The translations under genes were made by a program, and so were the position numbers. A stretch of 64,000 nucleotides of DNA from Acidobacteriota bacterium (GTDB lineage: Bacteria; Acidobacteriota; Thermoanaerobaculia; Multivoradales; UBA5704): the NCBI GenBank assembly GCA_034666985.1, contig JAXDKS010000063.1, forward strand, positions 105,226 to 169,225. The letters are read 5' to 3'. The number at the start of each line of letters is the position of its first letter. Positions within the stretch are counted from its first letter, which is position 1. Shown in pieces: positions 16,171-50,961 of this stretch. A model generated the notes under the pieces. That model was given only the letters and a program-made list of their open reading frames with translations, had not been told where the DNA came from and searched no databases.

Positions 16171-16309
16171 GCCGTCTCAGGAGACGCCCTCCGTGCGCGC
16201 CACGTTGGCATCCAGCCCCGATCCCCGAGATATGATGTTCGTCGTTCTCGGAAGATCTGGAGCATGGCCGGCCGGGCCGGTTCGCCCGGGTGGAGGCACG
16301 CTGGGCGTC

Positions 16310-16912
16310 ATGAGCACCGATGTGGGACCAGAGCCGGACGAGGCGGCGGTCGCTGCCGACCTCGTCCGGCGGATCGCGGCGGGAGATGCGACCGCCGAAG
16401 GGCAGCTCGTCGAACGCTACCGTCGGGGCCTCCTCTATCTGCTGCGCCGCCTCGGGGCCCTGCCGGACCTCGCCGACGACCTCCAGCAGGAGACCTTCCG
16501 GATCGTGATCGAACGGCTGCGCCAGGAGGGTCTCGCGGACCCGGCCGGCCTCGCGCCCTTCCTCCGCGGCACGGCCCGCAACCTTCTCATCGCCGAAAGG
16601 CGCAAGGCGGCGCGCCGGCGGACCTGGGGCGACACGGGCGAGCTGGCCGAGGCCGTGGCGCCCGCGCCGAGCCAGCTCCAGTCCGTGCTGCTGGACGAGG
16701 AGGCCGAGATCGTGCGAAAACTGATCGGCGAGCTCCCCACCGACCGCGACCGGCAGCTCCTGCTACGCTTCTACGTCGGCGAGGAGGACAAGGAGAGCAT
16801 CTGCACTGATCTCGGGCTCGACAGTCTTCACTTCAACCGCGTCCTCTTCCGGGCCCGCCAGCGCTTCAAAGAGCTCCTGGAACGCTTCGAGAAACGGCAG
16901 GCCCGGGCCTAG
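16310..16912 (+). CDS. ECF (group 4) sigma-70 family sigma factor
   Basis: Region 2 (LVERYRRGLLYLLRR...DLQQETFRIVIERL) and region 4 HTH (ELPTDRDRQLLLRFYVGEEDKESICTDLGLDSLHFNRVLFRARQRFKELL). ATG at 16310; GTG 16193 would add an atypical 39-aa extension. Confidence 0.85.
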   Translation: MSTDVGPEPDEAAVAADLVRRIAAGDATAEGQLVERYRRGLLYLLRRLGALPDLADDLQQETFRIVIERLRQEGLADPAGLAPFLRGTARNLLIAERRKAARRRTWGDTGELAEAVAPAPSQLQSVLLDEEAEIVRKLIGELPTDRDRQLLLRFYVGEEDKESICTDLGLDSLHFNRVLFRARQRFKELLERFEKRQARA

Positions 16913-16937
16913 TGAAGGCCCGAAGGAAGGACAACGG

Positions 16938-17774
16938 ATGGATCACGACTACATCGAAGAGCACCAGATCGCCGACCGCTACGTGATGGGGACCCTCCCG
17001 GCGGACGAGGTGGAGCGATTCGAAGACCACTATCTCTCCTGCCCCGAGTGCCTGGATCACCTGGAGCTCGCCGAGCCCGTCCAGCGGGGCTTCAAACGGA
17101 TGGCAGGACAGGACGCCGCGAAGCTCTCCGCCACGCGGCAGCTCGCCTTCCTGGCCTGGCTCACCCGCCTCGGCCGCTCGCGCCAGATCGGATTCCTCCT
17201 CGCGGCCCTGCTCGTCATCGCGGTCCTGCCGGCCGGCCTGGCCCTACGGGGGACCGCCGAGCGCGGGCGGGAGCTGGCGCAGACCCGCTCGGCCCTGGAG
17301 CAGGAGCGGCATCGCGCGGCTACGGGTGCGCGGAGCGCTGCGGAGGTCGAGAAATTGCGCTCGGAGCTGAGCACCGAGCGAGATGCCAGGACGCACGCCG
17401 TCGAGCAACTCGCCCAGGCCCGCCAGCCCCAGGCCAACACCCCGATCCTCTTCTTCGACGCGGAGCGCGGCGGCGGCCCGCCGGAAGCCGAGCCGACGCA
17501 GCAACTGCACCTGCCGGCGAAGGCGGGCTGGATCGTCCTCGCCCCGGTGATGGACCCTCCCTTCTCCCCCTCCTATCAGGCGATCCTGCGGGATGCCCGC
17601 GGCCGAGAGCTGTGGCGCGTCAAGGACCTCCACCCGAACGAGCGCGACACCTTGAGCCTCAGCCTCCCCGCCAGCCTCCTGCCGCCCGGCGACTACTCCC
17701 TCTCGATCGAGGGCCTCACGCCCGGCAAAAAGCCCGCCGCCGCCGGCCGTTTCACCTTCCGCGTCCTCGCGTGA
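16938..17774 (+). CDS. ZAS-type anti-sigma factor (HxxxCxxC zinc motif), single TM, extracytoplasmic coiled-coil domain
   Basis: FEDHYLSCPECLDHLE zinc-binding anti-sigma motif and TM IGFLLAALLVIAVLPAGLAL. Sits immediately downstream of the ECF sigma, with RBS GAAGGAAGG. Confidence 0.8.
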   Translation: MDHDYIEEHQIADRYVMGTLPADEVERFEDHYLSCPECLDHLELAEPVQRGFKRMAGQDAAKLSATRQLAFLAWLTRLGRSRQIGFLLAALLVIAVLPAGLALRGTAERGRELAQTRSALEQERHRAATGARSAAEVEKLRSELSTERDARTHAVEQLAQARQPQANTPILFFDAERGGGPPEAEPTQQLHLPAKAGWIVLAPVMDPPFSPSYQAILRDARGRELWRVKDLHPNERDTLSLSLPASLLPPGDYSLSIEGLTPGKKPAAAGRFTFRVLA

Positions 17775-17800: not shown

Positions 17801-17840
17801 CCGATCGAACGCTCTGATGAGCGATCGAAAGGAGAGAAAA

Positions 17841-20810
17841 ATGAGAACGAAAGCCCTTTGGCTCGCCGTCCTCGCTGCCCTCGGCGGGCTTCCGCTCGCA
17901 GCGCAGTTGGAAGGCAATCGCCCCTATGATGCGCGCATCGCGCAGAACGCCAACCTGAAGAACGTCACCCCGGCGCTGATGGCTCAGGTGGCCGCGCTAC
18001 GCAGTGCCAGGCCCGATCTGCTCGTCGAGTACGACGATGCGGCCGGTACGACGCGCTCCCTTTACAACCCAGGCGGAAACCTGAGCGATGCCAAGGCCTC
18101 GAACCTCGGGATCGACCCGCTCCTCATCGCCCAGCGGTGGGCCGAGGCGCACAAGGCCGCCCTCGGGCTGACCAGCGCCGATCTCGCCCAGGCCGCCGTC
18201 AACGACAGGGTCAGCTCCCCCCTCGGTGGCACGACGCACCTCTACCTGCGCCAGACCTTCAAGGGGCTGACGGTCTACAGTGCCCTGCTCCAGCTCAACC
18301 TCGACCGCCAGGGCCGGGTGATGAGCGTCAACAACAGCTTCCAGGCCGGTCTCGCGACTTCGATCAACACCCTGACCCCGGGCATCGACGCGGCCAAGGC
18401 CGTGGCCAGCGCCGCCAGGCACCTGAAGCTCGATGCGGCGCCCCGGCAGCTCGGCTCTCCTTCCGGCGTCGACCAGCGAACGGGAGTGGACAACGCCGGG
18501 CTCTCGCGCCAGCCGATCGCGGCGCACCTGATGCTGCTCCCCATCCGGCGCGGCGAGACCCATCTGGTGTGGAATTTCCTTATCTACACCCTGGACAGCC
18601 AGCACGTCTACGACCTGACGGTCGACGCCGTCACCGGGCAGGTCTGGACCCGCTTCGACCTGGTGGCGAGCGATACCTACAAGGTCTATCCCAAGCCGGT
18701 CGAAAGCCCGAACCACACCGCTCCTCTGCCTCCTGCCGACGGCCGCGGAGTGTTGACCAACCCGGCCTTCAATCCCGGCTCCCCCTTCGGCTGGCACGAC
18801 ACCAACGGCGTCACCGGCGCCGAATTCACGACTCTGCGCGGCAACAACGTCCACGCCTACGACGACATCGACGCCAACGACCTGCCGCCGGGCAGCGAGC
18901 CCAACTGCGGCATTACCTTGAATTGCAGCTCCCCGATCAACCTGGCTGGCGCGCCTAGCACCTATACCCCGGCGGCGGTCGCCAATCTCTTCTACTGGAA
19001 CAACGTCGTGCACGACGTGCAGTTCCAGTATGGCTTCAACTCGCCGTCCGGCAACTTCCAGACCAATATCTACGGCGCCGGCGGCCTCGGCAATGACGAG
19101 GTGCAGGCCGAGGCGCAGGACGGCGGCGGCATGAACAACGCCAACTTCTTCACCCCGGTCGACGGCCAGCGGCCGCGCATGCAAATGTACCTGTGGAGCA
19201 CGGCCACGCCACAGAAGGACGGCGATCTCGACAGCGGCGTCATCGTCCACGAATACGGCCACGGGATCTCCAACCGCCTGGTCGGCGGACCGAGCAACGT
19301 CACCTGCCTGGTCAACCCCCAGCAGCCGGGCGAGGGCCTCTCCGACTGGTGGGCGCTCGCCTACACCCACAAGGCCGGCGACCAGGGGACCGACGGGCGC
19401 GGCATCGGCACCTACGTGCTGAACCAGCCGACCACCGGCCCCGGCATCCGCGCCAAGCGTTACAGCACCGACCCGGCGATCAACAACTGGACCTACGCCA
19501 GCATCAACGGCATGGCCATCCCGCATGGGGTGGGCTCGGTCTGGGCGGAGGCGGCCTGGAGAGCCTACTGGGCGCTGGTCGACAAGTGGGGCTTCGATCC
19601 CAACCTTTACAATGCCACAGGCGGCAGCGGCAACCAGCGGATGATGCTCTATGTCAACGAGGGGTTGAAGTTCACCGCCTGCAACCCCACCTTCACCCAG
19701 GTGCGGGACGGCATCCTGCAGGCGGCCTCGGTCAACTACGGCGGGGTCGACGTCTGCCCCCTGTGGGTTGCCTTCGCCGCTTTCGGCCTGGGCAGCAACG
19801 CCGTCTCGGGCGGCCCCAACAGCACGACGCCGACCAACGGATTCGCCGTTCCCCCGCAGTGCCGCACCGACGTCTGGATCCAGGACACGCCATCCGATAC
19901 CGGGCTCGAGCCCGATCCCGCCACCGTCGGCCAGCCGATGTGGCAGAGCCAGGACATCTGGGTGAGGAACAGTCTCACCAACGGTCCGCACGAGAACCCG
20001 GAGTACGGCCAAGTCAACTATATCCATGTCCGAGTGAGGAACCGGAGCTCGGTCGCGGCCGCCAACGTGCCGGTCAAGGTCTATTTCGCCAATGCCTCGG
20101 TCGGCCTCTCCTGGCCGGCGAACTGGACGCTGATCAATACCGGCAACGTCGTCAGCCTTGCTCCCGGCGCCAGCACCGAGGTCGTAGTGCCGTGGAGCCC
20201 GCCGGGGCCGCCACCGCCCTCGCACTTCTGCCTGGTGGCGCGGCTGGACACGGCCCAGGACCCCATGACCTTCCCCGAGACCACCAACATCGACCTCAAC
20301 GTGCGCAACAACAACAACATCGCCTGGAGGAACGTCAACGTCGTCGACCTCATCCCCTTCCAGATCGTCAAAGCCACGTTCAACGTCCGCAATCCCGGTC
20401 CGAAGAAGCTTCGTTCGAAGATCATCTTCCGCGAGCAGCGGGGCGGAGAGGGCTTCCTGAAGCGGGGTCGGGTGATGATCGACCTCAGCAAGCTCGCCGC
20501 GCGCTGGCAGGAGGGCAGGCGAGAGGGCAAGGGCTTCAGGACGATCGACGGCCATACGATCGAGGTCGAAAACGGCGGCTATATCATCGTCACCCTGAAC
20601 GGGCGCGAGGAGTTCGACCTCGGCCTGACTTTCGAGGACACCGCCCGGCGAGCTTCGACCAAACCGACCACGGACCGGCAGGCGGCCAGGCCGGCCGTCA
20701 ACCGGTACGGTTTCGAAATCGTGCAGGAGGATGCCGACCATGGGAAGGAGCTGGGAGGCATCGCCTACCAGATCGTAGCCCCGGTGCCGGTAGGGGCGCC
20801 GCCGCAGTGA
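17841..20810 (+). CDS. Secreted M36 (fungalysin-like) zinc metalloprotease with propeptide and C-terminal extra domains
   Basis: Signal peptide MRTKALWLAVLAALGGLPLAAQ, HEYGHGISNRL (HExxH) and downstream EGLSDWWA Glu block, with fungalysin-like N-terminal propeptide features. RBS AGGAGA precedes ATG 17841. Confidence 0.85.
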   Translation: MRTKALWLAVLAALGGLPLAAQLEGNRPYDARIAQNANLKNVTPALMAQVAALRSARPDLLVEYDDAAGTTRSLYNPGGNLSDAKASNLGIDPLLIAQRWAEAHKAALGLTSADLAQAAVNDRVSSPLGGTTHLYLRQTFKGLTVYSALLQLNLDRQGRVMSVNNSFQAGLATSINTLTPGIDAAKAVASAARHLKLDAAPRQLGSPSGVDQRTGVDNAGLSRQPIAAHLMLLPIRRGETHLVWNFLIYTLDSQHVYDLTVDAVTGQVWTRFDLVASDTYKVYPKPVESPNHTAPLPPADGRGVLTNPAFNPGSPFGWHDTNGVTGAEFTTLRGNNVHAYDDIDANDLPPGSEPNCGITLNCSSPINLAGAPSTYTPAAVANLFYWNNVVHDVQFQYGFNSPSGNFQTNIYGAGGLGNDEVQAEAQDGGGMNNANFFTPVDGQRPRMQMYLWSTATPQKDGDLDSGVIVHEYGHGISNRLVGGPSNVTCLVNPQQPGEGLSDWWALAYTHKAGDQGTDGRGIGTYVLNQPTTGPGIRAKRYSTDPAINNWTYASINGMAIPHGVGSVWAEAAWRAYWALVDKWGFDPNLYNATGGSGNQRMMLYVNEGLKFTACNPTFTQVRDGILQAASVNYGGVDVCPLWVAFAAFGLGSNAVSGGPNSTTPTNGFAVPPQCRTDVWIQDTPSDTGLEPDPATVGQPMWQSQDIWVRNSLTNGPHENPEYGQVNYIHVRVRNRSSVAAANVPVKVYFANASVGLSWPANWTLINTGNVVSLAPGASTEVVVPWSPPGPPPPSHFCLVARLDTAQDPMTFPETTNIDLNVRNNNNIAWRNVNVVDLIPFQIVKATFNVRNPGPKKLRSKIIFREQRGGEGFLKRGRVMIDLSKLAARWQEGRREGKGFRTIDGHTIEVENGGYIIVTLNGREEFDLGLTFEDTARRASTKPTTDRQAARPAVNRYGFEIVQEDADHGKELGGIAYQIVAPVPVGAPPQ

Positions 20811-20938: not shown

Positions 20939-20986
20939 CAGATCAAGCGTGGATCATTGGGATCACCCGCTCGAAAGGAGACTGTC

Positions 20987-22231
20987 ATGAAAATAAAAGA
21001 CGCCAATTCAAGGCCCTCCCGCCTGAATTGCAGCAACGTGACCGCCTATCTCAACGAGTATCTCGGCGGCAAGTGCAAGTCGAAAAAGAATCACCTCAAG
21101 CCTTGCCATGACGAAACCCCGCACGGGTGTAGCTGCGGCGGCTCATCCCATGCCACCGGCAACAAGGTCGACCTCATCATCCTCATCGACGGCAGCAGCT
21201 CGATGACGACCGCGGCGAACCTCGTCAACAGCGCCGCCATCAGCGCCCTCAAGATCGCCCATGAGAAGTGCCCGTCGGATCTGCGGGTCGACTGGTTCAC
21301 CGTGGACAACGACAACCCCGGTACGACTGCCAGCGGATCGGGAGGATGGCCGGGCACCAACTTCACCCGGACCCATGAGCAGTACCTGAACAGCATCGGA
21401 GTCGCCGGACCCTATTTTCACAACAACGCCCAGACTCCCGGAGGCTCTCCCAACAACGAGCAGGGAGCGGACGCTGTCGCCGACCTGTCAAAATTCTACG
21501 ACTGGCGGCCAGGCGCCTGCCGGGCGATCTTCTACATCAGCGATACCACCCTGGACGCCGGCGGGAGCCAGGATCCGGACGATACCGCGGCGACCACGAA
21601 CGCCATCTCCCAGGCCCTCGCCAATCAGGTAGCGGTATTCACCCATTTCGTCATCCCCCACGTCACCTCCTCCGTGCCGGCCACCCAGGCTGACTACCAG
21701 GCCCTGTGCAGCCAGACGGGCGGCACGTTCTATGAGGGAGCGGTCAGTCAGGAAAAGTATGTCGAGATCCTCACGGACGTGGTCTGCCACGCGTGCGGGG
21801 GCTGCAAGGAGATCAAGGCTCCGGACATCGGGCCCTGCGTCTCGATCTCATGGGGCGACAGCGAGTGCGACTGCATCGAGACCGACGACGTCGAGATCCT
21901 CTGCATCACGCTGTGCAACTGCTACTCCAACGTCACCTTCGAGAACGTCGTGGTCGGCACGATCGTGGTGACGGACGGCGCGGGCAATGTCGTCCCGACC
22001 CTGCCGGACGGCACTCCCTCCATCCAGGCCATCCCCATCGGTCCCATCTGCTTCGGCAGCATCGGGCCCTGCAAGGATGGCAACGCGGCTTGCGTGTCGC
22101 GGGAGTTTGCCCTGCGGCTGCGCGGGGCCAAGGGCGGCACGTATCAGGTCCACGTCCGGCCGATCTGCTACAGCGTCACCTTCCACTACCAGAAGGAAGA
22201 ATGCTTCCTGATCCCTGTCTGCCAGGATTGA
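20987..22231 (+). CDS. VWA (von Willebrand factor A, MIDAS DxSxS) domain protein with Cys-rich C-terminal domain
   Basis: VDLIILIDGSSSM MIDAS motif. C-terminal region has more than 20 Cys in CxxC/CxC arrangements (HACGGCKEIK..., CDCIETDD..ILCITLCNCY). RBS AAAGGAGA. No obvious signal peptide. Local GC is lower than the surroundings. Confidence 0.7.
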   Translation: MKIKDANSRPSRLNCSNVTAYLNEYLGGKCKSKKNHLKPCHDETPHGCSCGGSSHATGNKVDLIILIDGSSSMTTAANLVNSAAISALKIAHEKCPSDLRVDWFTVDNDNPGTTASGSGGWPGTNFTRTHEQYLNSIGVAGPYFHNNAQTPGGSPNNEQGADAVADLSKFYDWRPGACRAIFYISDTTLDAGGSQDPDDTAATTNAISQALANQVAVFTHFVIPHVTSSVPATQADYQALCSQTGGTFYEGAVSQEKYVEILTDVVCHACGGCKEIKAPDIGPCVSISWGDSECDCIETDDVEILCITLCNCYSNVTFENVVVGTIVVTDGAGNVVPTLPDGTPSIQAIPIGPICFGSIGPCKDGNAACVSREFALRLRGAKGGTYQVHVRPICYSVTFHYQKEECFLIPVCQD

Positions 22232-22297
22232 CCATCCTGCCGAGCTCCGGGCGGGGGAGCCCCTGCCCGGGCGATCCTGCTTCTCTCACCGCCGGCC

Positions 22298-22939
22298 TCA
22301 CGGCAGCAGCCCCCGCCGCGCCGCGTAGCGGACCAGCTCGGCGGTGTTGTGGACGCCCAGCTTCTCCATCAGCCGGCAGCGGTGGTTGTCGGCGGTCTTG
22401 ACGCTGATCCCCAGGCCGCGGGCGATCTCCTTGGTGGTGCGGCCGTCGACCACGAGATGGAAGACCTCGCGCTCGCGGGGGGAGAGGCCGCCGTAGGGAT
22501 CGTCCACCGGCGCCGGCTGGCGGTACTGCTCGGCGAGCACCCGCGCCGCCTGCGGACCGAAGTAGCCCTGGCCGGCGTGGAGGGCGCGCACGGCGGCGAG
22601 CAACTCGGCCACGGCGCTGTCCTTCACCAGGTAGCCGGAGGCGCCGGCACGCACCACGGGCAGGACGTACTCTTCCTCTTCATGCACCGTCAGGGCGAGC
22701 ACGCGGATCTGCGGCATCTCCTCGTGGATGCGGCGCACCGCCTCCAGGCCCGAGAGGCGCGGCATGGTGAGGTCGACGACCGCCACCTCCGGCCGCGTGG
22801 CGCGCGCCTTCTCCACCGCCTCCAGGCCGTCCGCCGCCTCGGCCACCACCTCGCACTCGCCGCTCTCGACGAGCAGGCTCACCAGACCCTGGCGCACGAG
22901 GGTGTGGTCGTCCGCGACCAGGACCCGCACCCGGGCCAT
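22298..22939 (-). CDS. NarL/FixJ (LuxR-type) response regulator
   Basis: REC domain (VLVADDHTLVRQG...VVDLTMPRLSG) plus LuxR HTH (LSPREREVFHLVVDGRTTKEIARGLGISVKTADNHRCRLMEKLG). The ATG shares one nt with the stop of the upstream HK gene. Confidence 0.9.
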   Translation of the reverse strand: MARVRVLVADDHTLVRQGLVSLLVESGECEVVAEAADGLEAVEKARATRPEVAVVDLTMPRLSGLEAVRRIHEEMPQIRVLALTVHEEEEYVLPVVRAGASGYLVKDSAVAELLAAVRALHAGQGYFGPQAARVLAEQYRQPAPVDDPYGGLSPREREVFHLVVDGRTTKEIARGLGISVKTADNHRCRLMEKLGVHNTAELVRYAARRGLLP

Positions 22940-23682
22940 CACGTCACCTCCGTCAGGGGCACCACGGCCGAGATCCGGGTCCCCTGGCCGGGCGCAGAGG
23001 ACAGCTCCAGGCGGCCGCCGAAGAGCTCCAGCCGGTCGTGCATGCCGCGCAGGCCGGAGCCCGCCGCTCCGCCCCCGAGGATGGACTTGGGATCGAAACC
23101 CCTCCCGGCGTCGGCCACCCGCAACTCGAGAAGCTCCCCGGCCCGCCGCACGGCGACCTGGGCGCGGTCCACGCCCGCGTGCCGGAGGACGTTGGTCAAG
23201 GCCTCCTGGATCAGGCGGAAGACCAGCGTCTCGACGTCCGAGTCGAGGCGCTCGTCGAGACCGTCGAGAGCGAGCTCGACCTTGAGGCCCGTGCGCTGCT
23301 CCAGCGTGCGGGCGAACCAGGTGAGCGCGGGGGCGAGGCCGAGGTCGTCGAGCACCGGCGGGCGCAGCAGGCGCGACATCTCACGGGTCTCGTTGAGGGC
23401 GAGGCGCGCCATGTCGACCGAATCGCCGAGGCGGGCCGCCAGCTCGGGGGATACCGCGCCGTCAAGCTTCTCCCGCAGGCGCTCCAACTGATGGGTGAGG
23501 GCGGTCAGGGTCTGACCGAGACCGTCGTGCAGCTCGCGCGCCAGGCGCCGCTGCTCCTCTTCCTGCACCTTCCACACCGCCTTGGCGAGGCCGCGGAACC
23601 GGCGCTCCCCTTCGATCAGCCGCGCGAACAGCCGCTCGTTGGCGCGCGTGATGTCGCGCACGCGGTCGACGATGTCGTGCAT
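22939..23682 (-). CDS. Cytoplasmic NarX/DegS-type sensor histidine kinase (HisKA_3 + HATPase_c), no TM or sensor domain
   Basis: H-box LARELHDGLGQTLTAL, then N/G boxes (...RVADAGRGF...GSGLRGMHDRLELFGGRLEL). Start placed at ATG 23682..23680, because the longer ORF start at 23763 would overlap the upstream kinase by 68 nt. Confidence 0.75.
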   Translation of the reverse strand: MHDIVDRVRDITRANERLFARLIEGERRFRGLAKAVWKVQEEEQRRLARELHDGLGQTLTALTHQLERLREKLDGAVSPELAARLGDSVDMARLALNETREMSRLLRPPVLDDLGLAPALTWFARTLEQRTGLKVELALDGLDERLDSDVETLVFRLIQEALTNVLRHAGVDRAQVAVRRAGELLELRVADAGRGFDPKSILGGGAAGSGLRGMHDRLELFGGRLELSSAPGQGTRISAVVPLTEVT

Positions 23683-23695
23683 CGGATCGGCGGGC

Positions 23696-26600
23696 TCAAC
23701 CGTTCGGCTTGAGCGGTCCAACCCGGACTCCCGGTCCACCGGCTCCGTCCTGCTTCGTTCCATCCTGGGCCTCCACCCTGCGATCGAAAAACTGCCGCGG
23801 CTCGGGAGCGAGGTCCCGGCTCACCCTGGCGATCTCCTCGCCGGCGCGGCGACGTTCGGCTTCGGCCTCGGCGCTCCGGCCGTCGCGTTCCAAAGCACGT
23901 GCCAGCAGCCGGTGCAGCCGGTAGGAGCCGGCGTAGCCGCCGCAGGCCGTTGCAAGCTGAAGGCCGGCCCGGGCCGCCGCCTGCGCCCGCCCCGGCTCGC
24001 CGGCGGCGAGCGCCGCCCGGGCCACGGCCTCGGCGGCGCGCAGCCGCAGCCGGGCGTTACCCAGCGCCTCGGCCTCGGCGCGCAAGCGCTCCAGCTCGGC
24101 GAGCCCGGCCCTGGACCGGCCCGGAACGTCGGCGGCCGACAGCCGGGTGGCCAGGATCTCGACCACGCCATGGCTCTCTTTGGCCTCGGCGACCGCCCGG
24201 CGCAGGGCCTCCCCGGCAGCGGCGCGATCCCTCGGACCATCGTGCGCCAGGAGATGCTCGCCGCGCAGCCGGTCGAGCTCGGCCTGCTGCTCCCGGTTCT
24301 TGCCCTCGGCCAGCAGCTCCCCGGCGGCCCGCAGGCGCTCGCCGGCGGCCTCGATCATCCCCAGCTCGAGCTCGGCCTCGGCCGCGGCCAGGGTGAACTC
24401 GGCGAGACCCCGTCGGTCGCCGAGCTCACGCAGGACCTTCAGGGCTTCATCGTAGGAGGCGAGAGCGGCGCCCGGGCGTCCCTGGTACTGGGCGAGGCGC
24501 CCGAGGTTGCCGAGCGAGACCGCGATCGTCTCTTTCTTGCCGAGCTCCCGGCTCGCGCCGAGGGCGGTGAGGAAGGACTTGACCGCCTCATTCCACTCCC
24601 CGCGCGCCAGCTCGAGCTGGCCGAGGTTCTGCGTCGCCAGAATGACGCCGCTCGGATTGCCGCTCTGCTTGGCCAGGTCGAGACCCTGGCGCCAGTAGAC
24701 CAGGGCGTCGTCGTAGCGCCCCAGCAGGTAGCAGGCGAAGCCCACGTTGCTGAAGCTCTGGGCCAGGGCGAGGTCATTGCCGAGGTCGCGGCGTACGCGC
24801 AGCGCCTGCCGGTAGCCCTCCAGGGCCTCCTCGTAGCTGCCCCGCTGCTCGGCGAGCACCCCGAAGTTGTCGTAGAGGTCGGCGATGCCCGGCGCGTCGC
24901 CCAGCCGCTGCAGGAGAGCCAGGGCCTCCGTGAGCTGCGACCGGGCCGCCGCGTACTGGCCGCGCATCGTATGGATGGTCGCCAGGTTGCGCAGGGTCGT
25001 CGCATAGCCGCGCTTGTCGCCGATCCGCTTCCGGATGGCCGCTGCCTGCTCGTAGGTCTCGACCGCTCGATCCATCTCCCCGAGGTTGCGGTAGGCCACC
25101 CCGAAGGCGTTCAGCACCTCGGCCCGGCTCTGCTCGCTGCCGAGCTCGTTCTGCACCACCAGCGCCCGTACCAGGTACTCGTCCACGGCGTGCCGGGCGT
25201 CGCCAGCCACGATCGAATACCTGCCGAGGAGGAACCAGGCGCGCGGGTGATGCGGCGCGAGGCGCACCGCCTCCCGCAGGGCGGCGATCGCACGGTCGAG
25301 GCTCCCCTGCTCGCCGTAGGCCTCCGCCAGCTCGATCCGCGCCTCGACGTCGTCCGGGTAGCGCGCGAGCAGCCGGGAGAGGATCTCCTGCGCCCGCTCC
25401 GGACGGCCCAGGAGCCGCGCCTCGACGGCCCGCGCCTCGTAGGCCGCGCGGCTCTCTCCTGCCCCCAGGATCTCGACCGCCCGTTGCGCCGCCTCGCGCG
25501 CCGGCTCCCCCTGGCCGAGCGCCTGGCGCGCCCGGGCGAGCTGCACCCAGGCAGCGCTGTAGCGCGGATCGGCCGTCACCGCCCGCTCCAGGGAGGGCAC
25601 CGCCGCCAGGGCGTCCCCGCGCCGCAGGCTCTCCACCCCCTTGGAGTACTCCGCCAGGGCCGCCGGCGAACGGCTCGCCACCGGCTCTACCGCCACGGCC
25701 GCGGGTACCGCGAGCTCCCGGCGCAGGACCCCGCCGAGTTGCTCGACGAGGCGGAAGGCCTCCCCTTCCGCGGCCTCGGCGTGAAGCGCTGCCGCCGGCA
25801 GGCCGGGGGGGTCCGTCGCCAGCAGCGAGAGATCGATCCGCAATTGGCCGCCCACGGCGCGGACCCGGCCGCCGACCAGATGGTCGGCGTCGAGCAGCCC
25901 CGCCAAGCGCCGCGCCTCGGTCTCGGGCAGCGGTCCGCGCGGCAGCTTCAGATCCTCCAGGGTGCGGAAGACCCGCTGGCTGTCGAGCACCCGCAGCTCC
26001 GGGCTCTCGGCCAGGGAGGCGGCGAGCATCTCCGGCATCCCGATAGCCACCCAGGCCAGGTCCGGCCGGCCCGTGTCGTCGGCCAGGGGGAGGAGCGCCA
26101 CGGCATGCCGAGGCCCCGCGGCGACCGTCTTCCTGGCAGCGGCCGGCTGCCGTGCCTGCGGGACGCGCCCGCGGCCAACCTCGCGGACGGCCCAGCCGAG
26201 GACGAGCAAGACGAGGAGACAGCCCACCCCCACCGCGATCTGCCACCGCTGAATCGCGGGGGCCGCGCGGTGCTGGTCGTCGAGCTCCTGGACGACCTCG
26301 CCCGCGCTCTGCGGTCGCCGCGCCGGGTCGCGCGCCAGCAGCCGCTGCACGAGGGCCCGCAGGGGGGCCGGCACCGCGGCTGGCCAGCGCAGATTGCGCG
26401 GCGACCCGGTCAACCGCTGGGCCAGCATCTCGGCCTCGGTGGCGGCCGAGAACGGCAGCTCGCCGGTCAGCATCTCGTAGAGGAGGAGCCCCAGGGTATA
26501 GAGATCGGACCGGCCGTCGACCGCGTCCCCTCGCGCCTGCTCCGGCGAGAGATAGCCGAGGGTGCCGAGCACGGTGCCGGGGACGGTCAGGCCCGAGCCC

Positions 26601-27157
26601 GTGAGCGAGCGGGCGATCCCGAAGTCGGTGATGGCGACGCGCAGGGAGCCTCCGCTCTCGTCGACCAGGACGTTGCCGGGCTTCAGGTCGCGATGGATCA
26701 CCCCCGCGCCGTGGGCCGCCTCCAGCGCGAGGGCGAGCTGACGGGCGATCGCCACCGCCCGCTCCGGGGCCAGCCGCGTCTCCTCGGCGAGCAGGTCCCC
26801 CAGCGACCGGCCAGGGACGAAGTCCATGGTGAGGAAGGCGAGATCGCCGTCGCTGCCGATGTCGTGGATGCGGACGACGTTGGGGTGGCTCACCTGCCGC
26901 GCCAGCACCAGCTCCTGCTTGAAGCGCTCCAGCCACCGCCCATCCCCCGCCAGGTCGGGCCGCAGGACCTTGACCGCGACGGGCAGCCCGAGCTGCTCGT
27001 CCTGCGCCCGGTAGACCATCCCCATGCCGCCGACGCCCACCAGCTCCAGGATGCGGTAGCGCCCGCCGAGCAGGGAGCCCACCGCCAGCCGCTGGACAGC
27101 TCCCTCGGCGGTGCGGGTCGGGAGGTCCGACCGCCGCGCCGGGAGCTCGCCGCTCAC
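23696..27157 (-). CDS. Hanks-type Ser/Thr protein kinase, single TM, long extracytoplasmic TPR-repeat region (1153 aa)
   Basis: YRILELVGVGGMGMVYRA...VIHRDLKPGNVLV...DFGIAR...GTLGYLSPE catalytic core, TM WQIAVGVGCLLVLLVLGWAV, then more than 12 TPR-like repeats. The GTG start at 27157..27155 overlaps the stop of the FHA-GAF gene (GTGA). Confidence 0.85.
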   Translation of the reverse strand: MSGELPARRSDLPTRTAEGAVQRLAVGSLLGGRYRILELVGVGGMGMVYRAQDEQLGLPVAVKVLRPDLAGDGRWLERFKQELVLARQVSHPNVVRIHDIGSDGDLAFLTMDFVPGRSLGDLLAEETRLAPERAVAIARQLALALEAAHGAGVIHRDLKPGNVLVDESGGSLRVAITDFGIARSLTGSGLTVPGTVLGTLGYLSPEQARGDAVDGRSDLYTLGLLLYEMLTGELPFSAATEAEMLAQRLTGSPRNLRWPAAVPAPLRALVQRLLARDPARRPQSAGEVVQELDDQHRAAPAIQRWQIAVGVGCLLVLLVLGWAVREVGRGRVPQARQPAAARKTVAAGPRHAVALLPLADDTGRPDLAWVAIGMPEMLAASLAESPELRVLDSQRVFRTLEDLKLPRGPLPETEARRLAGLLDADHLVGGRVRAVGGQLRIDLSLLATDPPGLPAAALHAEAAEGEAFRLVEQLGGVLRRELAVPAAVAVEPVASRSPAALAEYSKGVESLRRGDALAAVPSLERAVTADPRYSAAWVQLARARQALGQGEPAREAAQRAVEILGAGESRAAYEARAVEARLLGRPERAQEILSRLLARYPDDVEARIELAEAYGEQGSLDRAIAALREAVRLAPHHPRAWFLLGRYSIVAGDARHAVDEYLVRALVVQNELGSEQSRAEVLNAFGVAYRNLGEMDRAVETYEQAAAIRKRIGDKRGYATTLRNLATIHTMRGQYAAARSQLTEALALLQRLGDAPGIADLYDNFGVLAEQRGSYEEALEGYRQALRVRRDLGNDLALAQSFSNVGFACYLLGRYDDALVYWRQGLDLAKQSGNPSGVILATQNLGQLELARGEWNEAVKSFLTALGASRELGKKETIAVSLGNLGRLAQYQGRPGAALASYDEALKVLRELGDRRGLAEFTLAAAEAELELGMIEAAGERLRAAGELLAEGKNREQQAELDRLRGEHLLAHDGPRDRAAAGEALRRAVAEAKESHGVVEILATRLSAADVPGRSRAGLAELERLRAEAEALGNARLRLRAAEAVARAALAAGEPGRAQAAARAGLQLATACGGYAGSYRLHRLLARALERDGRSAEAEAERRRAGEEIARVSRDLAPEPRQFFDRRVEAQDGTKQDGAGGPGVRVGPLKPNG

Positions 27158-28188
27158 GAGGGGACCCCGAGCGGCGCGTGGGCCGCCAGGAGACCGTGCC
27201 AGGTGTCGGGCCGGTTCCGCACCGCGGCGGCCGCCGGCGGGCCGGAACGGGCGCCATGGAACGAGCGATCCAGCACTGCCGTGATCTGTCCGGCGAGCCG
27301 GGACCGCAGCGCCGCGCTCCCCTCCTCGCCGGCCCCGTGCGCGATCCGCTCGGCCAGCCCGCGCAGCTCGCCGTCGAGCCGCGCCACGGCGATGGCGAGC
27401 CCCGCCTGCACGGCCATCGCCTCCAGGATCTCCAGGTCGAGCTCGGTGAACGCCGCCCCCGGCCGGCGGCTGTCGGCGTACATCACGCCGAGCCGCTGGT
27501 CGAGCGCCTGGAGGGGCACGCAGAGGAGGGCCCGGATGCCGCCCGAGATGATGCTCGCCCGCGCCGCCAGCTCGGCGTCCGCCCGCGCGTCCGTGCTGAC
27601 CACCGGCCGGCCGCTCGCCAGGGCCCGCTCGACCGCGCCCACGCTGCCGCCGAACTCCGCCGCCCTCAGGTCGTCCCAGGAGAGCCCCGAGCGCGCCGCC
27701 ACCTCCAGCTCGCCGTCCTCGCCGGCGAGGAGGAGGAAGCCCCGCTCCGCCCCGGTCAGGGCCAGCATCGAGGCGACCACCCGCGACAGCAGCTCGCCCA
27801 GGCCCAACCCGGGATTCAGCTCGCGCCGGACCTCCAGCGCCGTGGTCAGGCGCCGCAGCCGCGCCTCGTGGAAGACCTCGACCGGCCCCTCGGCAGCCTC
27901 GAAACGGGCGAGCAGGCCCCCGAAGCTGATCCAGCTCTCCGCCGCGAGCGGCGCCGCCCTCTCCACCGGCCTGCCGTCGACCAGGGTGCCGTTCTTGCTG
28001 CCGAGGTCGGCCACCGTCCAGCCGGACGGCGGTCCGGGCGCGAGCACGGCGTGCCGCCGGGAGACGCGGTCGTCCTCGATCACCACACCGCACTCCAGGC
28101 CGCGCCCCACGACCGTCTCGCGCCCCTCCGGCAGGATCAGCTCCCGGGCCGGAGCGGCGGGGAAAAGGATCGTCAGGCGCGCCGGCAT
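27154..28188 (-). CDS. FHA domain + GAF domain signalling protein
   Basis: FHA block VVGRGLECGVVIEDDRVSRRHAVLA...VADLGSKNGTLVDGRPV. GAF-like block LALTGAERGFLLL...IRALLCVPLQALDQRLGVMYADSR. Strong RBS GAGGAGATAA before the ATG at 28188. Confidence 0.85.
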   Translation of the reverse strand: MPARLTILFPAAPARELILPEGRETVVGRGLECGVVIEDDRVSRRHAVLAPGPPSGWTVADLGSKNGTLVDGRPVERAAPLAAESWISFGGLLARFEAAEGPVEVFHEARLRRLTTALEVRRELNPGLGLGELLSRVVASMLALTGAERGFLLLAGEDGELEVAARSGLSWDDLRAAEFGGSVGAVERALASGRPVVSTDARADAELAARASIISGGIRALLCVPLQALDQRLGVMYADSRRPGAAFTELDLEILEAMAVQAGLAIAVARLDGELRGLAERIAHGAGEEGSAALRSRLAGQITAVLDRSFHGARSGPPAAAAVRNRPDTWHGLLAAHAPLGVPS

Positions 28189-28218
28189 TTATCTCCTCTC
28201 TCGGCTCACGGCCCCGCT

Positions 28219-29058
28219 CTACTGGTCCTGCCGCAACCGGAGGCTGAACTGGAGAGTGTTCGCCCCCGCGCGCAGCAGCCCGGCCACGTCGACCCGGTCG
28301 TGCGCCGCGCGCCAGAGGTCCGGAATGTCCGCCCCGCTGTGCTGCTCGACGGTGGCCAGAAAGAGATCCAGATCGTGGATCGCGGCCGCTTCGTCCCCCG
28401 GCAGGGAGTGGGCGCGGGCGGCGGCGAGGTCCGCGGCGAGGTCGGCGCGGACCGCTTCGGGGATCGCGCCGGCGTTGGCCGCGAGGATGTGGTCCAGCCG
28501 GTCGAGCTTGGCCCCGACGGCCTGATCCAGGGAAGTCGAGTCGACGACGATCAGGAACTCGGAGAACCCGCCCTCCGAGCCGATGGCGCGATAGCTCGTG
28601 CCCCACTTGAGGTCCGTGGCCTTCTTGACGCTGCTCGTGATGTCCGCGAAGTACCCGCCCAGCGGCGCGGAGAGGAGGCGCAAGGTGTCCTCCGCATTCG
28701 AGAGACCGGAAGCGCGGATCTCGATGGACGCGATGCCGGTGAAGGCGAGGCCCCCCGCGGGCGTCGGCTCGATCCGCACCAGCACCGGAAAGCCGGAAGG
28801 GATCGAGACGGTAGCCGGCAGGCGGGCGCCGAGGACCGGGTCGGCCGGCGAGACCACCTGCGCCGAGATCCCGAGGTTGACGGGAGTCAGCCCCGTGACG
28901 CTCTCGAAGCTCACGGTGACCTCGCCGGTGATGCCGCCCGGCAGCGCGATCGGCAGGCTCACCGAATTCCCGCTGCCCAGAGGACTGCCGTTTCCCTGAC
29001 CCGCGGCCGGTACGGCCACAGCCAGGATGAAGAGGAACCCGATCAAAATCTTGTTCAT
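28219..29058 (-). CDS. Secreted hypothetical protein (signal peptide MNKILIGFLFILAVAVPAAGQ)
   Basis: ATG at 29058..29056 inside ORF 28219..29325. Same strand as, and 30 nt upstream of, the FHA-GAF gene. Confidence 0.55.
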   Translation of the reverse strand: MNKILIGFLFILAVAVPAAGQGNGSPLGSGNSVSLPIALPGGITGEVTVSFESVTGLTPVNLGISAQVVSPADPVLGARLPATVSIPSGFPVLVRIEPTPAGGLAFTGIASIEIRASGLSNAEDTLRLLSAPLGGYFADITSSVKKATDLKWGTSYRAIGSEGGFSEFLIVVDSTSLDQAVGAKLDRLDHILAANAGAIPEAVRADLAADLAAARAHSLPGDEAAAIHDLDLFLATVEQHSGADIPDLWRAAHDRVDVAGLLRAGANTLQFSLRLRQDQ

Positions 29059-29312
29059 ACTCTCATCCCCCTGATAGATAGGTGGCGGAATCCCTCGCGA
29101 GAGAGACGTCAAAGCTTTCACGATTCCTCTTGAATGAAATTCAGCCTGCAAAAACTGCAAAAGTCGTCCGGATTTTACGACCACTATACACCTGTCAGGC
29201 TCCGCCTGAGGGAAAACCCCCAGCCCGGGTGAGGGCATTCCCCGGTTCCGCCAAAGTTGCCCGCCCCGCATAGTTGCGAAGACAGGAACAGCTACCACCC
29301 AAAGGAGGGGAC

Positions 29313-31874
29313 ATGAATGCATCACCCATCCAGCGCTTCCGCGCTTCAGCCCTGCGGGCCTTCGCCCCGGCGCTGTGCGTGGCCGCGTTGCTGCTCACGA
29401 GCCTCGCTACCGTCAGCCCCGCGTCCGCGGCGACGCTGGGACCCTCTCTCACCGCCAAGCTGAACGGCCTCCCGGGCACGGCCAGCGTGGGCACGGTGAT
29501 CGTGGCGTTCAACACCAGCACCGGCCTCAACCCTTCGCACCTGACGACCCTGACCCTGGCCGGCATCACCCGTGGCGTCACGCTCCAGAACCTCGGCATG
29601 GTGGCCGCGCCGGCGACCGCGGGCCAGGTCCGCGCCCTGGCCTCCAACCCCGCCGTGCGCTCGATCTGGCTCAACGACCGGCTGCAGTACCTGAACGATC
29701 AGACCCGCACGCTCACCGGCGTCGACCACATGCGCACCGATCCGGACTTCGCCCGGCTCAACCAGGGGCTGCCCGTCTCGGGCAAGGGCAACTTCTCGCT
29801 CGTCATCAACGACTCCGGGGTCGACGGCACCCATCCCGACCTGCACTTCCCGGAGCACCTCATCCAGAACGTGCAGTCGTTCGTCGACACCAACACGCTG
29901 ACCGGCTTCCTCCCCCCCGTGTTCGTCGAGAACGTGCCGGACACCGACCTCAACGTCGGGCATGGCACCCATTGCGCGGGCATCGCGGCCGGGACCGGCG
30001 CCGCCTCCGGCGGCCAGTACGCCGGCGTCGCTCCGGGAGCGAACCTGGTCGGCTTCGGCTCCGGCGCCGTGCTCTTCATCCTCAACGGCCTCGGCGGCTT
30101 CGAGTACTCGCTCGCCAACCAGTTCCGCTACAACGTCCGCATCATCTCGAACTCGTGGGGCGGGACGGGCGCGTACGATCCGAACGATCCCATCGCGATC
30201 GCCAGCAAGCTGGCCCACGACCGCGGGATCGTCGTCGTGTTCGCGGCCGGCAACTCCGGTCCGGGCAAGGACACCATGAGCTCCGAGCCGAAGTCTCCCT
30301 ACGTGATCGCCGTGGCCGCCGGGACCAAGGAAGGCGGCCTCGCGGGCTTCTCGTCGCGCGGCGTGCCGAAGTCCCAGCGTCAGGCCGGCGACTTCAACGC
30401 GCCGGCGATCACCGCTCCGGGCACGGGCCGCGAATTCGACTCGAACAGCGGCCGGTTCACCTCCGACGTGGTGTCCACCCGCTCCAAGACCAACGTCTTC
30501 GCCAACGGCACGACCGCCGACGCCGAGCTCCCGGTCTCCGCCCTTCCCTACTACACCGAGATCAGCGGCACCTCGATGGCGGCGCCCTTCATCGCCGGCA
30601 CCGTGGCCCTGATGCTGAGCGTCGACCCGACGCTGTCGCCCGACGAGGTGAAGTCGATCCTCACCCAGACGGCCACGCAGATGCCCGGCTTCTCCGAGTT
30701 CGAGGTCGGCGCCGGCTACGTCAACGTCTACGCGGCCGTCGACAAGGTCTTCCACCGCAGCAAGGCCTACGGCACCTACGGCGGACCGCTCGACCAGCAG
30801 CACTTCAATCTGAGCATCACCACCACCACCGCTTCGCAGACGCCCTTCCACGTCGACTACAACCCGGTGGCGACGCCGGGGCCGGGCGGCGCCAACTCGA
30901 AGCCTTTCCAGGTGCAGGCCGGCATCTCGGTGCTGGACGTCTTCGCCAACGTCGACAATGCGGTGACGACCGGCGATGGCAACACCGTGGCCCTGCTGCT
31001 GACCGATCCCAACGGCAAGACCTACTCCAGCGGCGTGCTGATCCCCATCCTCGACGCTCCCAACCGCGAGGTGGTGGTCAACAATCCGGTCCCCGGCAAT
31101 TGGCTGCTCGAGGTCCGGGGCGTGCGCGGCCTGGCAGCCCTGCCCGAAGTCTCCCTGCCCACCTCGGGCGCGGCGCTGCCCGGTCCCGTGGACGGTACGA
31201 TCACCCAGCAGGTCCACAACCTGCCCGCGATCGCGGACGTCCAGAGCGACCCGTCGCGGACCGAGATCGAATTCGTGCTGAAGAACCGGATGATGGACGT
31301 GCTGAGCGATGGCCTGTTCCATCCATCCTCGACGGTGACGCGCGGCAGCTTCGCCCAGACCCTGGTCTCCAACACCGCGCTGCGCCAGTCGTTGGCCGAC
31401 TCTCCGCTGTACACCGACGTGACCGGTCCGCTGGCCGCCATCGCCGAGGCCGTGACGGCCGACGGCTCCACCCTGCGCGACTACGACTTCACTCCCGGCG
31501 GCATGATCGCCGCTCACTCGCCGAGCTTCTCTCCCGGCGGCGCGGTCACCCGCACCGACCTCGCGGTCGCCCTCGTCAAGGCCCTGGGGCTCGACGCGGC
31601 GGCGCAGGCCAAAGCGGGCTCGGACGTCACCGCCACCTTCAACGGCACGACCGTGGTGGTGAGCGACAATTCATCGATCCCGTCGGCCCTGCGCGGCTAC
31701 GTGCAGATCGCGCTCGACAAGGGCATCCTGAACGCCCTCTTCAGCTTCCAGCAGGGTCCCAACGACTTCGAGCCGCAACTGGTGGCCAGGGTCAAGCCGA
31801 CCAGCGCGGTGACGCGGTCCTTCCTGGCCTTCGCCCTCGACCACTACCGGCAGGCCTTCGCCGCCGGCAACTAG
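29313..31874 (+). CDS. Secreted subtilisin-like S8 serine peptidase with C-terminal SLH-like cell-surface anchoring repeats
   Basis: D/H/S triad blocks (VINDSGVDGTHPDL; HGTHCAGIAAG; GTSMAAPFIAGTVALM). Signal peptide. Three C-terminal repeats with SLH-like ...TRxxFAxxLV signatures. RBS AAAGGAGGGG precedes ATG 29313. Confidence 0.85.
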   Translation: MNASPIQRFRASALRAFAPALCVAALLLTSLATVSPASAATLGPSLTAKLNGLPGTASVGTVIVAFNTSTGLNPSHLTTLTLAGITRGVTLQNLGMVAAPATAGQVRALASNPAVRSIWLNDRLQYLNDQTRTLTGVDHMRTDPDFARLNQGLPVSGKGNFSLVINDSGVDGTHPDLHFPEHLIQNVQSFVDTNTLTGFLPPVFVENVPDTDLNVGHGTHCAGIAAGTGAASGGQYAGVAPGANLVGFGSGAVLFILNGLGGFEYSLANQFRYNVRIISNSWGGTGAYDPNDPIAIASKLAHDRGIVVVFAAGNSGPGKDTMSSEPKSPYVIAVAAGTKEGGLAGFSSRGVPKSQRQAGDFNAPAITAPGTGREFDSNSGRFTSDVVSTRSKTNVFANGTTADAELPVSALPYYTEISGTSMAAPFIAGTVALMLSVDPTLSPDEVKSILTQTATQMPGFSEFEVGAGYVNVYAAVDKVFHRSKAYGTYGGPLDQQHFNLSITTTTASQTPFHVDYNPVATPGPGGANSKPFQVQAGISVLDVFANVDNAVTTGDGNTVALLLTDPNGKTYSSGVLIPILDAPNREVVVNNPVPGNWLLEVRGVRGLAALPEVSLPTSGAALPGPVDGTITQQVHNLPAIADVQSDPSRTEIEFVLKNRMMDVLSDGLFHPSSTVTRGSFAQTLVSNTALRQSLADSPLYTDVTGPLAAIAEAVTADGSTLRDYDFTPGGMIAAHSPSFSPGGAVTRTDLAVALVKALGLDAAAQAKAGSDVTATFNGTTVVVSDNSSIPSALRGYVQIALDKGILNALFSFQQGPNDFEPQLVARVKPTSAVTRSFLAFALDHYRQAFAAGN

Positions 31875-35826: not shown

Positions 35827-37761
<1,935 letters not shown>

Positions 37762-50822: not shown

Positions 50823-50961
50823 CAAGACTGTCCGCAGGCATTCCCCTCTCCCGGGGTGAGGGTCTTGGGTGGGGGCGCTCTTCGGAGGGCCAGTCTGCTA
50901 TGATTCCTTCTTACCATGTCCAGATCAGCTCCCGGAGGGAAGGGGGGCAGGGGGTCCGGTG

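Follow-up and report, generated by a model that had tools for sequence, protein, structure and literature searches.

Hanks-type Ser/Thr kinases and two-component systems are usually found to cross-talk case by case, with the partners encoded apart, and it is often unclear whether such contacts are designed or incidental. The subject of the present analysis is a cassette of five minus-strand genes in a 64,000-nucleotide stretch of the genome of an Acidobacteriota bacterium of the class Thermoanaerobaculia (assembly GCA_034666985.1, contig JAXDKS010000063.1, positions 105,226 to 169,225), the whole of which is referred to below as the window. A receptor Hanks kinase, an FHA-GAF protein, a histidine kinase (HK), a response regulator (RR) and a DUF6689 protein are packaged there in one operon, which is kept intact from Acidobacteriota to Gammaproteobacteria. 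Among the described cases, a Ser/Thr kinase modulates an HK in the pairs PknL-NarS of Mycobacterium tuberculosis, IreK-CroS of Enterococcus faecalis and YbdM-DegS of Bacillus subtilis, DegS being soluble (PMC12189002). The cassette HK differs from these HKs in having no equivalent conserved phospho-acceptor. NarS and DegS are HisKA_3/NarL-family kinases; to our knowledge, none of the three pairs is encoded in a single operon or works through an FHA adaptor, and the HKs keep input regions of their own.

The Esp system of Myxococcus xanthus includes the FHA-containing hybrid HK EspA, EspB and the Ser/Thr kinases PktA5 and PktB8, and Hanks kinases are thought to feed the HK through the FHA domain (PMC4320627, citing Stein et al. 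2006). There the FHA domain is fused to a hybrid HisKA-type HK and the output is the proteolytic turnover of MrpC, whereas the cassette has a separate FHA-GAF protein, a minimal HisKA_3 core and a DNA-binding RR. By Pfam, the cassette HK carries no FHA domain, and the FHA domain of the window matched the EspA model NF052573 weakly (34 bits against a cut-off of 1400). The HstK-type dual kinases of cyanobacteria carry a Ser/Thr and a His kinase domain in one protein, GAF domains being common in this class (PMC2176072, citing Phalip et al. 2001). The likeness lies in a Hanks kinase and an HK hard-wired together; HstK, however, is a single cytoplasmic polypeptide without FHA, whereas the cassette encodes three separate proteins, its Hanks kinase being a membrane receptor and its HK of the HisKA_3 family, the genes being separated by a stop codon and a 13-nt gap and the listed HK homologues all being short. 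The dimerisation domain of HstK is of HisKA type.

Small FHA effector proteins of actinobacterial Hanks kinases (GarA/OdhI, FhaA/FhaB) resemble the cassette in being associated with Hanks kinases, in docking on phosphothreonine (pThr) and in relaying by protein contact. GarA/OdhI control enzymes of metabolism and have a phospho-acceptor tail at the N-terminus; the FHA-GAF protein of the window lacks such a tail, has a GAF domain instead and is associated with a two-component pair. FHA-containing sigma-54 enhancer-binding proteins are described from Myxococcus (Jelsbak et al. 2005, PMC549468, as cited in PMC4320627). Here too an FHA(-GAF) input couples a Ser/Thr kinase signal to transcription, and the window holds a paralogue of this kind at 35827..37761, but the AAA+/HTH output is fused to FHA-GAF, while the output of the cassette is a separate HK-RR pair. 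The MCP-CheW-CheA-CheY pathway follows the same logic (membrane receptor, small adaptor, sensor-less soluble HK, RR) with no homology of receptor or adaptor, and is an analogy of design only. The cassette lacks the defining architecture of each fused family, while its proteins belong to the HisKA_3 HKs, the NarL-type RRs, the Hanks kinases, the FHA proteins and the DUF6689 family. The parts are ordinary and their fixed combination is unusual. The combination was not found described in the literature, although the library searched was incomplete and an earlier description is possible, and no NCBIfam equivalog above cut-off was obtained for any of six proteins, the five of the cassette among them.

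The five genes are located on one strand, tightly packed, in the following order:

28219..29058, minus strand: DUF6689 gene, the first of the cassette, 279 amino acids (aa), Pfam PF20396 1e-56, G+C content at third codon positions (GC3) 0.91

27154..28188, minus strand: FHA-GAF gene, 344 aa, cytoplasmic, Pfam FHA 1e-14 and GAF 3e-18

23696..27157, minus strand: Hanks-type Ser/Thr kinase gene, 1153 aa, Pfam Pkinase 2e-48, TPR_12 8e-38 and many TPR families

22939..23682, minus strand: gene of the sensor-less soluble HK, 247 aa, Pfam HisKA_3 6e-14 and HATPase_c 3e-13

22298..22939, minus strand: gene of the NarL/DevR-type RR, 213 aa, Pfam Response_reg 8e-27 and GerE 2e-18

The window has about 70% G+C and therefore holds long open reading frames (ORFs) in several frames, and GC3 was used for sorting genes from artefacts. 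All five ORFs were present at these coordinates with a GC3 of 0.91-0.96, as against about 0.53 where the DUF6689 and kinase ORFs extend further upstream and 0.78 in the short extension of the HK ORF. The competing long ORFs 23582..28525 (plus strand) and 23696..28606 (from a far start) were rejected as high-GC artefacts because GC3 falls outside the frames of the five genes. An HK start at the in-frame ATG 23763 (274 aa) was also rejected: the extra segment overlaps the 3' end of the kinase gene and has a lower GC3, and the orthologues start at the position of 23682. The junctions, as read from the sequence, consist of a 30-nt gap carrying a ribosome-binding site between the DUF6689 and FHA-GAF genes, a GTGA overlap of the FHA-GAF and kinase genes (27157..27154), a 13-nt gap (23695..23683) between the kinase stop codon and the HK gene, and a one-base overlap (TGATG) of the HK and RR genes at 22939. 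The gene content, gene order and tight junctions given in the original prediction, which had been made from the letters of the window, were confirmed in this way by ORF calls, Pfam and direct reading. A hydrophobic span is confined to the kinase (aa ~305-326); the HK, the FHA-GAF protein and the RR are without any. A scan for consensus promoters and terminators returned no two-hexamer promoter and two weak terminator-like hairpins (1.2 expected), which is neither positive evidence nor evidence for internal transcription signals in the cassette, and no RNA family was matched in an Rfam scan of 21500-32500.

For the collection of related loci (designated L with a number), an alignment scan with the FHA-GAF protein was run on one genome per GTDB species, and the best 80 loci were searched by tblastn with the window proteins; look-ups of DUF6689 were used as a further entry point and gave four loci, all of which led to the cassette. 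Complete cassettes in the same order and strand were present on 18 distinct contigs of two phyla, together with 8 contig-truncated ones, and an internal gene was missing in none of them. The taxa included Thermoanaerobaculia, two gammaproteobacterial metagenome-assembled genomes (MAGs) and the cultured Pseudoalteromonas gelatinilytica; the FHA-GAF orthologues came from Thermoanaerobaculia, a Vicinamibacteria fragment, a 'Gammaproteobacteria' MAG and a Lysobacterales MAG, and the HK is 100% identical to a protein of an Acidobacteriota MAG, its close relatives being annotated as Thermoanaerobaculia. Among the best 80 loci, the FHA-GAF orthologues with at least 38% identity were all in the cassette wherever the contig was long enough, and 60-odd paralogues with at most 33% identity (Bryobacterales, Phycisphaerae, Sumerlaeota, Hyalangium and others) were without cassette neighbours. 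Every DUF6689 gene examined was inside a cassette, that of the cultured P. gelatinilytica included. In L001, L003 and L004 the identical five-gene order stands between unrelated flanks. Identity to the window proteins was highest for the RR (60-96%), followed by the HK (44-82%) and the kinase domain (50-80%), the TPR region (35-76%) and the FHA-GAF protein (38-70%), and the DUF6689 protein (36-53%). An overlap of 4 nt between the FHA-GAF and kinase genes recurs in 10/17 loci, and one of 4 or 1 nt between the HK and RR genes in 11/14.

The cassette, with its co-oriented and translationally coupled genes, is conserved both vertically and horizontally. Because all five genes are strictly co-inherited in Acidobacteriota and Gammaproteobacteria, it is strongly supported that they form one functional unit, and the recurrent gene overlaps point in the same direction; on these comparative grounds, a single functional unit is regarded as very probable. 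Acidobacteriota have many Hanks kinases and two-component systems, and a second TPR kinase is encoded in the window, so that chance adjacency in a signalling-rich genome has to be considered. The arrangement greatly exceeds what chance would give, as the five genes recur in one order and strand on 18 contigs; with complete cassettes of identical order in two phyla and paralogue loci without neighbours, chance is already refuted by synteny, and its remaining probability is negligible.

The HK consists of a helix of about 40 aa, the HisKA_3 DHp domain and HATPase_c, with no transmembrane segment and no further Pfam domain. Its boxes ELHDGLGQ (H-box), EALTN, DxGxGF and GxGLxGMxxR are shared by 15 orthologues, so the H, N and G boxes of the HisKA_3 family are present, while the N-terminal input region of the kind found in NarX, DesK, LiaS and DevS is not; nor was the DegS sensor domain matched in the Pfam scan of the HK. 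It had been called NarX-type, which is better given as HisKA_3 family; the nearest solved relative is the DesK cytoplasmic core, with which it aligns over aa 28-242, leaving about 27 extra N-terminal residues. The lack of an input domain, also predicted, held: the 120 best homologue clusters (71-94% identity) range from 241 to 316 aa, with HisKA_3 and HATPase_c as their only domains, and because all of them are short, the absence of a sensor is a conserved property and not a truncation. There is no sensor in an alternative frame upstream of the HK, since the DNA there encodes the C-terminus of the kinase. The N-terminal helix NERLFxRLIEGERRFRGLAKAVWKVQEEE is highly conserved and recognisable in Pseudoalteromonas too.

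Since the sensor-less HK-RR pair is strictly co-inherited with the receptor kinase, the FHA-GAF protein and the secreted protein, the kinase module is taken to supply its input. The coupling of the kinase module and the HK-RR pair is strongly supported; for the direction and the biochemistry of signal flow, we infer the protein-protein and protein-DNA steps from the observed gene content, conservation, motif integrity and cis-element. In the proposed chain, the receptor Hanks kinase replaces the missing two-component sensor. The kinase ectodomain would detect an extracytoplasmic cue, possibly with the DUF6689 protein, and the kinase would autophosphorylate, also at an invariant N-terminal T-x-T motif. 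The FHA domain of the FHA-GAF protein would dock on the phosphothreonine of this motif, and the FHA-GAF protein thus recruited or released would, by its GAF domain and C-terminal helices, toggle the kinase and phosphatase states of the HK through the N-terminal helix of the latter. The HK would then phosphorylate the RR, and RR dimers would bind palindromes and activate the promoter of the adjacent S8 peptidase gene from about -43.5 and -66.5, possibly with autoregulation of the operon, with transcription of this adjacent secreted-protein gene as the outcome. The chance that the chain is correct in full is judged to be even.

The kinase has the T-x-T motif at aa ~13-17 (PTRTA), the kinase domain at aa 34-288, the membrane span, a post-membrane domain with the motif AVALLPLADxTG (conserved as AVALLPLADETGRxDLAW) and about 650 aa of TPR. 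The Hanks motifs, namely the catalytic Lys (VAVKVL), HRDLKPGN (HRDLKPxN), DFG and SPE, are invariant in 18 orthologues, and so are both Thr of the T-x-T motif, which lies about 15 residues before the kinase domain. The kinase is not of the PASTA class: the match to NF033483 covered the kinase domain only (aa 27-298; 304 bits against a cut-off of 450), and the ectodomain is TPR. The DUF6689 protein scored 192.5 bits (gathering cut-off 27) for Pfam PF20396, a family without known function, of which no mention was found in the literature of the incomplete library searched. From its hydrophobic, signal-like N-terminus, which is shared by all orthologues, it is predicted to be secreted or periplasmic. 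The AF2 model (pLDDT 87, pTM 0.82) comprises a signal peptide, a beta-sandwich and a four-helix bundle, and the best PDB match was to accessory domains of the GH92 entry 7nsn (E 2e-4), a weak lead in view of the low TM-score.

In the FHA-GAF protein, the FHA domain (aa 1-98) is followed by a helical linker, the GAF domain (aa 130-248) and two long C-terminal helices (AF2, pLDDT 90.9). The pThr-binding residues G28, R29, S43, H46, S64, N66 and G67 do not vary among 34 representatives of the family, and the domain superposes on those of GarA, OdhI and Rv1747 with an rmsd of 1.6-2.9 Å (1.6-2.2 Å for GarA/OdhI); pThr binding is predicted. A GarA-like switch with the Thr of a C-terminal T-W-x-x-L motif was considered and rejected: the motif is recurrent in distant representatives, but the cassette orthologues keep only the Trp, with Thr in about one third. 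The GAF fold was assigned by Pfam (3e-18), by the AF2 model and by structural matches to phytochrome and other GAF domains; it resembles the regulatory GAF domains of NifA type, and G181, S182, Y237 and D239 in this region are invariant in the same 34 representatives.

The properties of the GAF domain bear on a further explanation, in which two inputs converge: the GAF domain would sense a cytoplasmic small molecule as the true sensor of the HK, with the Hanks kinase gating or localising it, or the HK helix itself would sense a signal as in DegS. The invariant GAF residues and the NifA-type likeness agree with the former, and the HK starts with a segment resembling a signalling helix. Such S-helix segments normally follow a GAF or PAS domain, and soluble HKs under the control of partner proteins are known (NtrB-PII, CheA-CheW). 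The invariable retention of an ectodomain of about 830 aa and of a secreted partner in the operon would be left unexplained, however, and the fold search assigns the GAF domain no ligand; two converging inputs are regarded as improbable.

The reading of FHA-GAF as an input module is supported by the second kinase module of the window, with the following genes:

35827..37761, minus strand: FHA-GAF-sigma54 (AAA+)-HTH_8 enhancer-binding protein, a paralogue of the FHA-GAF protein

37918..38646, plus strand: protein without Pfam match, 242 aa

38643..41291, minus strand: Hanks kinase with TPR repeats, 882 aa

This trio is also present in L207 (1984-7467), 2-8 kb from the cassette. The FHA-GAF-sigma54 paralogue lies near the second TPR kinase in the window and in L207, which speaks for FHA-GAF as a kinase-responsive input module. 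Further support comes from representative P0305, an in-frame FHA-GAF::kinase fusion of 1478 aa and the only fusion seen among the best 150 FHA-GAF representatives. The other long proteins among the 38 of this set match the query in the GAF region only, the Pfam check having been done on P0305 alone. In L017 (10001-14419) a frameshift divides the FHA-GAF gene, which tblastn matched as two pieces in different frames, and an ORF in the alternative frame continues into the kinase gene; this apparent fusion is an assembly artefact of a long-read MAG.

The main rival assumes that the kinase acts directly on the HK or the RR, the FHA-GAF protein being merely a substrate, scaffold or regulator of the kinase. 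The documented mode of cross-talk is that Hanks kinases phosphorylate HKs and RRs directly (PMC12189002). The conserved 4-nt overlap and the only fusion seen moreover associate the FHA-GAF protein with the kinase and not with the HK, and the best solved relative of the RR is DevR, on which PknB acts. A phospho-acceptor in the HK N-terminus or ATP lid (compare NarS T380 and CroS T346) was sought as a candidate site and none was conserved; as no Ser/Thr outside the canonical HK motifs is conserved in the 15 orthologues, direct phosphorylation of the HK is without sequence support. The conserved Ser/Thr of the RR stand at family-typical positions only, and there would be no explanation for why a separate GAF domain, invariant in its pocket (G181, S182, Y237, D239), is always retained. 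Direct action is considered unlikely, if the least so of the rivals. For the suggestion that the Ser/Thr kinase is the sensor feeding the HK/RR pair, this means that the functional unit is supported by the co-inheritance of the five genes, while the feeding from kinase to HK is a proposal: no non-canonical HK Ser/Thr is conserved, and relay through the FHA-GAF protein or action on the RR is equally possible.

At the output side, a 16-bp palindrome of 7-2-7 geometry, TGAGGGA-TT-TCCCTCA, travels with the cassette, mostly in tandem at 22-24 bp, and this association is a new finding of the present analysis. The elements between the cassette and the neighbouring S8 gene are:

29313..31874, plus strand: S8 (subtilase) peptidase gene, 853 aa, signal peptide, Pfam Peptidase_S8 (PF00082) 3e-39, divergent from the cassette

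29207..29222, no strand assigned: candidate operator site B, TGAGGGAAAACCCCCA on the plus strand, 14/16 match to the palindrome, 24.1 bits

29230..29245, no strand assigned: candidate operator site A, TGAGGGCATTCCCCGG on the plus strand, a weaker copy with its centre 23 bp from that of site B

29269..29274, plus strand: putative S8 -10 element CATAGT (ACTATG in the minus reading), conserved in 5 loci

29183..29190, minus strand: putative extended -10 of the cassette operon, TGTATAGT, about 118 nt upstream of the DUF6689 start, function predicted

Site B is the sole strong match to a position weight matrix (PWM) of the palindrome in the 64-kb window, and is aligned and conserved in the window, L001, L003, L004, L005, L006 and L209. 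In the aligned upstream regions of DUF6689, two copies of GGRAWTNCCCYCA lie 23 bp apart in the window, L001, L003, L004, L005 and L006. Towards S8, site B is followed by 7 nt, site A, 23 nt, CATAGT, about 30 nt, the ribosome-binding site AAGGAGGGG and the ATG at 29313, and the 23 nt between site A and the -10 element are fixed in the window, L001, L003, L004 and L209. Sites A and B would thereby be placed near -43.5 and -66.5 of the putative S8 promoter, a geometry typical of activators. On the cassette side, GTGTATAGT is conserved in the window, L001, L003, L006 and L209, at 8-24 nt from site B.

In L007, L008, L010, L017 and L018, a perfect palindrome, in tandem at 22-24 bp, stands right after the RR stop codon and ahead of the next gene. 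This next gene encodes an 851-aa BNR-repeat protein in L010, a 199-aa protein of unknown function in L007 and a 199-aa protein with a sub-threshold match to a PPC domain (E 8e-4) in L018; in L004, L005, L006 and L019 the cassette alone stands behind the palindrome. A degenerate second and an apparent third copy at steps of 22-24 bp were observed in L007 (15933-16010), L008 (15826-15900), L010 (7182-7260) and L017 (16470-16550), with a conserved CCTCCTG followed by a -10-like element (GATAGC/GTTAGC); these four loci appear to have a multi-site promoter architecture unlike the two-site one of the window. The Pseudoalteromonas locus, which is AT-rich, has exactly two copies of GGGG(A/T)TTTCCCTCA, one ahead of each flanking S8 gene (0.00 expected from shuffles). 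PWM matches of at least 19.6 bits were obtained in 14 cassette loci and none of at least 15 bits in 1.03 Mb of non-cassette loci, a result that is partly circular in that some of the scored instances built the matrix; the matches in L004, L005, L006, L019, L208 and L209 are independent, not being in the building set. The palindrome was rejected as an intrinsic terminator: its loop has 2 nt, no T-run follows, and there are copies upstream of genes far from 3' ends.

The RR is the most conserved protein of the cassette, the Pseudoalteromonas copy being 60% identical. The receiver residues DD, D(L/I)xMP, T and K are conserved as in the NarL/FixJ family, and the recognition helix ISVKTA[DE]NHR is almost invariant and kept between the phyla. 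Its best solved relatives are DevR (2e-37), then VraR and NarL. The palindrome shares the 7-2-7 geometry of NarL operators, and its GGGA/TCCC core recalls the DosR (DevR) box, GGGAC...GTCCC; half-site and spacing nevertheless differ from both DevR and NarL operators, and binding by the RR is a prediction. That the RR uses the palindrome is considered rather likely. In L004, L005, L006, L019 and L208 the palindrome lies ahead of the cassette itself, as autoregulation would have it, and this fits a reading in which coupling is absent: the HK-RR pair would control the operon and its neighbours, while the kinase, the FHA-GAF protein and the DUF6689 protein act on unrelated targets. The sensor-less HK would then have no input, and a five-gene order that is kept from one phylum to the other at 36-60% identity, partial cassettes not being seen, is unusually strict for mere co-regulation, which is accordingly judged very improbable.

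A metagenome scan for the 16-mer TGAGGGWTTTCCCTCA returned at least 120 stretches of very mixed G+C, none with the cassette among the matches listed, and random 16-mers dominate. Several unrelated contigs recovered through the 16-mer alone (L147, L150, L159, L180, L196 and L087) have, no more than about 2 kb from the motif, a GerE-type HTH gene that shares 43-54% identity with the C-terminal domain of the RR; the HTH gene of L147 occupies 709-885, and the motif follows at 892, directly past the gene end. Other LuxR-family regulators may share the operator.

The S8 family assignment is confirmed by GHGTHCAG and SGTSMAAP motifs visible in the alignments. The window protein is 69-74% identical to the divergent S8 peptidases of L001 and L003 and 38-39% identical, over about 840 aa, to both S8 proteins flanking the Pseudoalteromonas cassette, which are full-length orthologues; L209 has an 855-aa S8 gene in the same position. 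Because the conserved palindrome precedes S8 genes in both phyla, the S8 peptidase is probably the regulated target. The divergent S8 gene next door had been pointed out before, correctly but with too little weight, as S8 orthologues and the palindrome recur beside the cassette in Pseudoalteromonas. As a universal sixth gene, S8 was rejected: it occurs once each in the window, L001, L003 and L209 and twice in Pseudoalteromonas, and the flanks of L004 and L007-L019 are without it. The Pseudoalteromonas pair (L085, 7356-9821 and 16558-19023) consists of paralogous 821-aa proteins of 42% mutual identity, encoded on the cassette strand on either side of the cassette. The epithet of P. gelatinilytica refers to gelatin degradation.

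Several observations weigh against the proposed chain from kinase to S8 gene. In Pseudoalteromonas the first Thr of the T-x-T motif is kept and the second lost, and the residues following the motif show no consistent pT+3 preference. Several basic residues lie in the TPR region just past the membrane span, so that the outside topology of the TPR rests on the single-span count. A PP2C phosphatase is encoded in no cassette locus for which a gene table was listed. The HK has no conserved Ser/Thr outside its canonical motifs, as mentioned; the P0305 fusion could have arisen from a single frameshift at the 4-nt overlap, and no FHA-GAF::HK fusion was present among the best 150 representatives. On the output side, the adjacency of S8 is restricted to a subset of loci, a strong palindrome was not found in the available flanks of L003 (sub-threshold though aligned), L009, L012, L013 and L015, and the partial circularity of the PWM counts in the same sense.

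An extension of the chain from kinase pThr through the FHA-GAF adaptor to the sensor-less HK may be put forward tentatively. The hard-wired hybrid pathway would form a feedback loop of extracellular proteolysis, in which the RR switches on the S8 peptidase and the products or the state of proteolysis, possibly reported by the DUF6689 protein, are read by a peptide-binding TPR ectodomain; this loop is possible but doubtful.

As the HK has no input of its own, the conversion of a phospho-Ser/Thr signal into a His-Asp one becomes directly testable in a minimal, dedicated system. Practical handles are offered by the candidate operator, the candidate target (a secreted subtilase) and the culturable host Pseudoalteromonas gelatinilytica, which, with the occurrence of the cassette across phyla, are the additions of this analysis to the original prediction. 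The DUF6689 family gains a first functional context, and the cassette suggests a route by which soil Acidobacteriota, which are poorly studied, may control the breakdown of protein outside the cell.

Of the genes around the cassette, a plus-strand ORF at 20957..22231 (424 aa, N-terminus rich in Cys and Lys), in a stretch of lower G+C (0.63), is convergent with the RR gene; it had no Pfam match and is not conserved beside the cassette elsewhere. The neighbourhood in the window is rich in secreted hydrolases and likely regulators, none of them with the cassette palindrome:

12278..15628: CHAT-TPR protein

16193..17774: ECF-type sigma factor and zf-HC2 anti-sigma factor

17817..20810: M36 fungalysin metallopeptidase

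33958..35052: class-3 lipase

50869..54738: C25 peptidase

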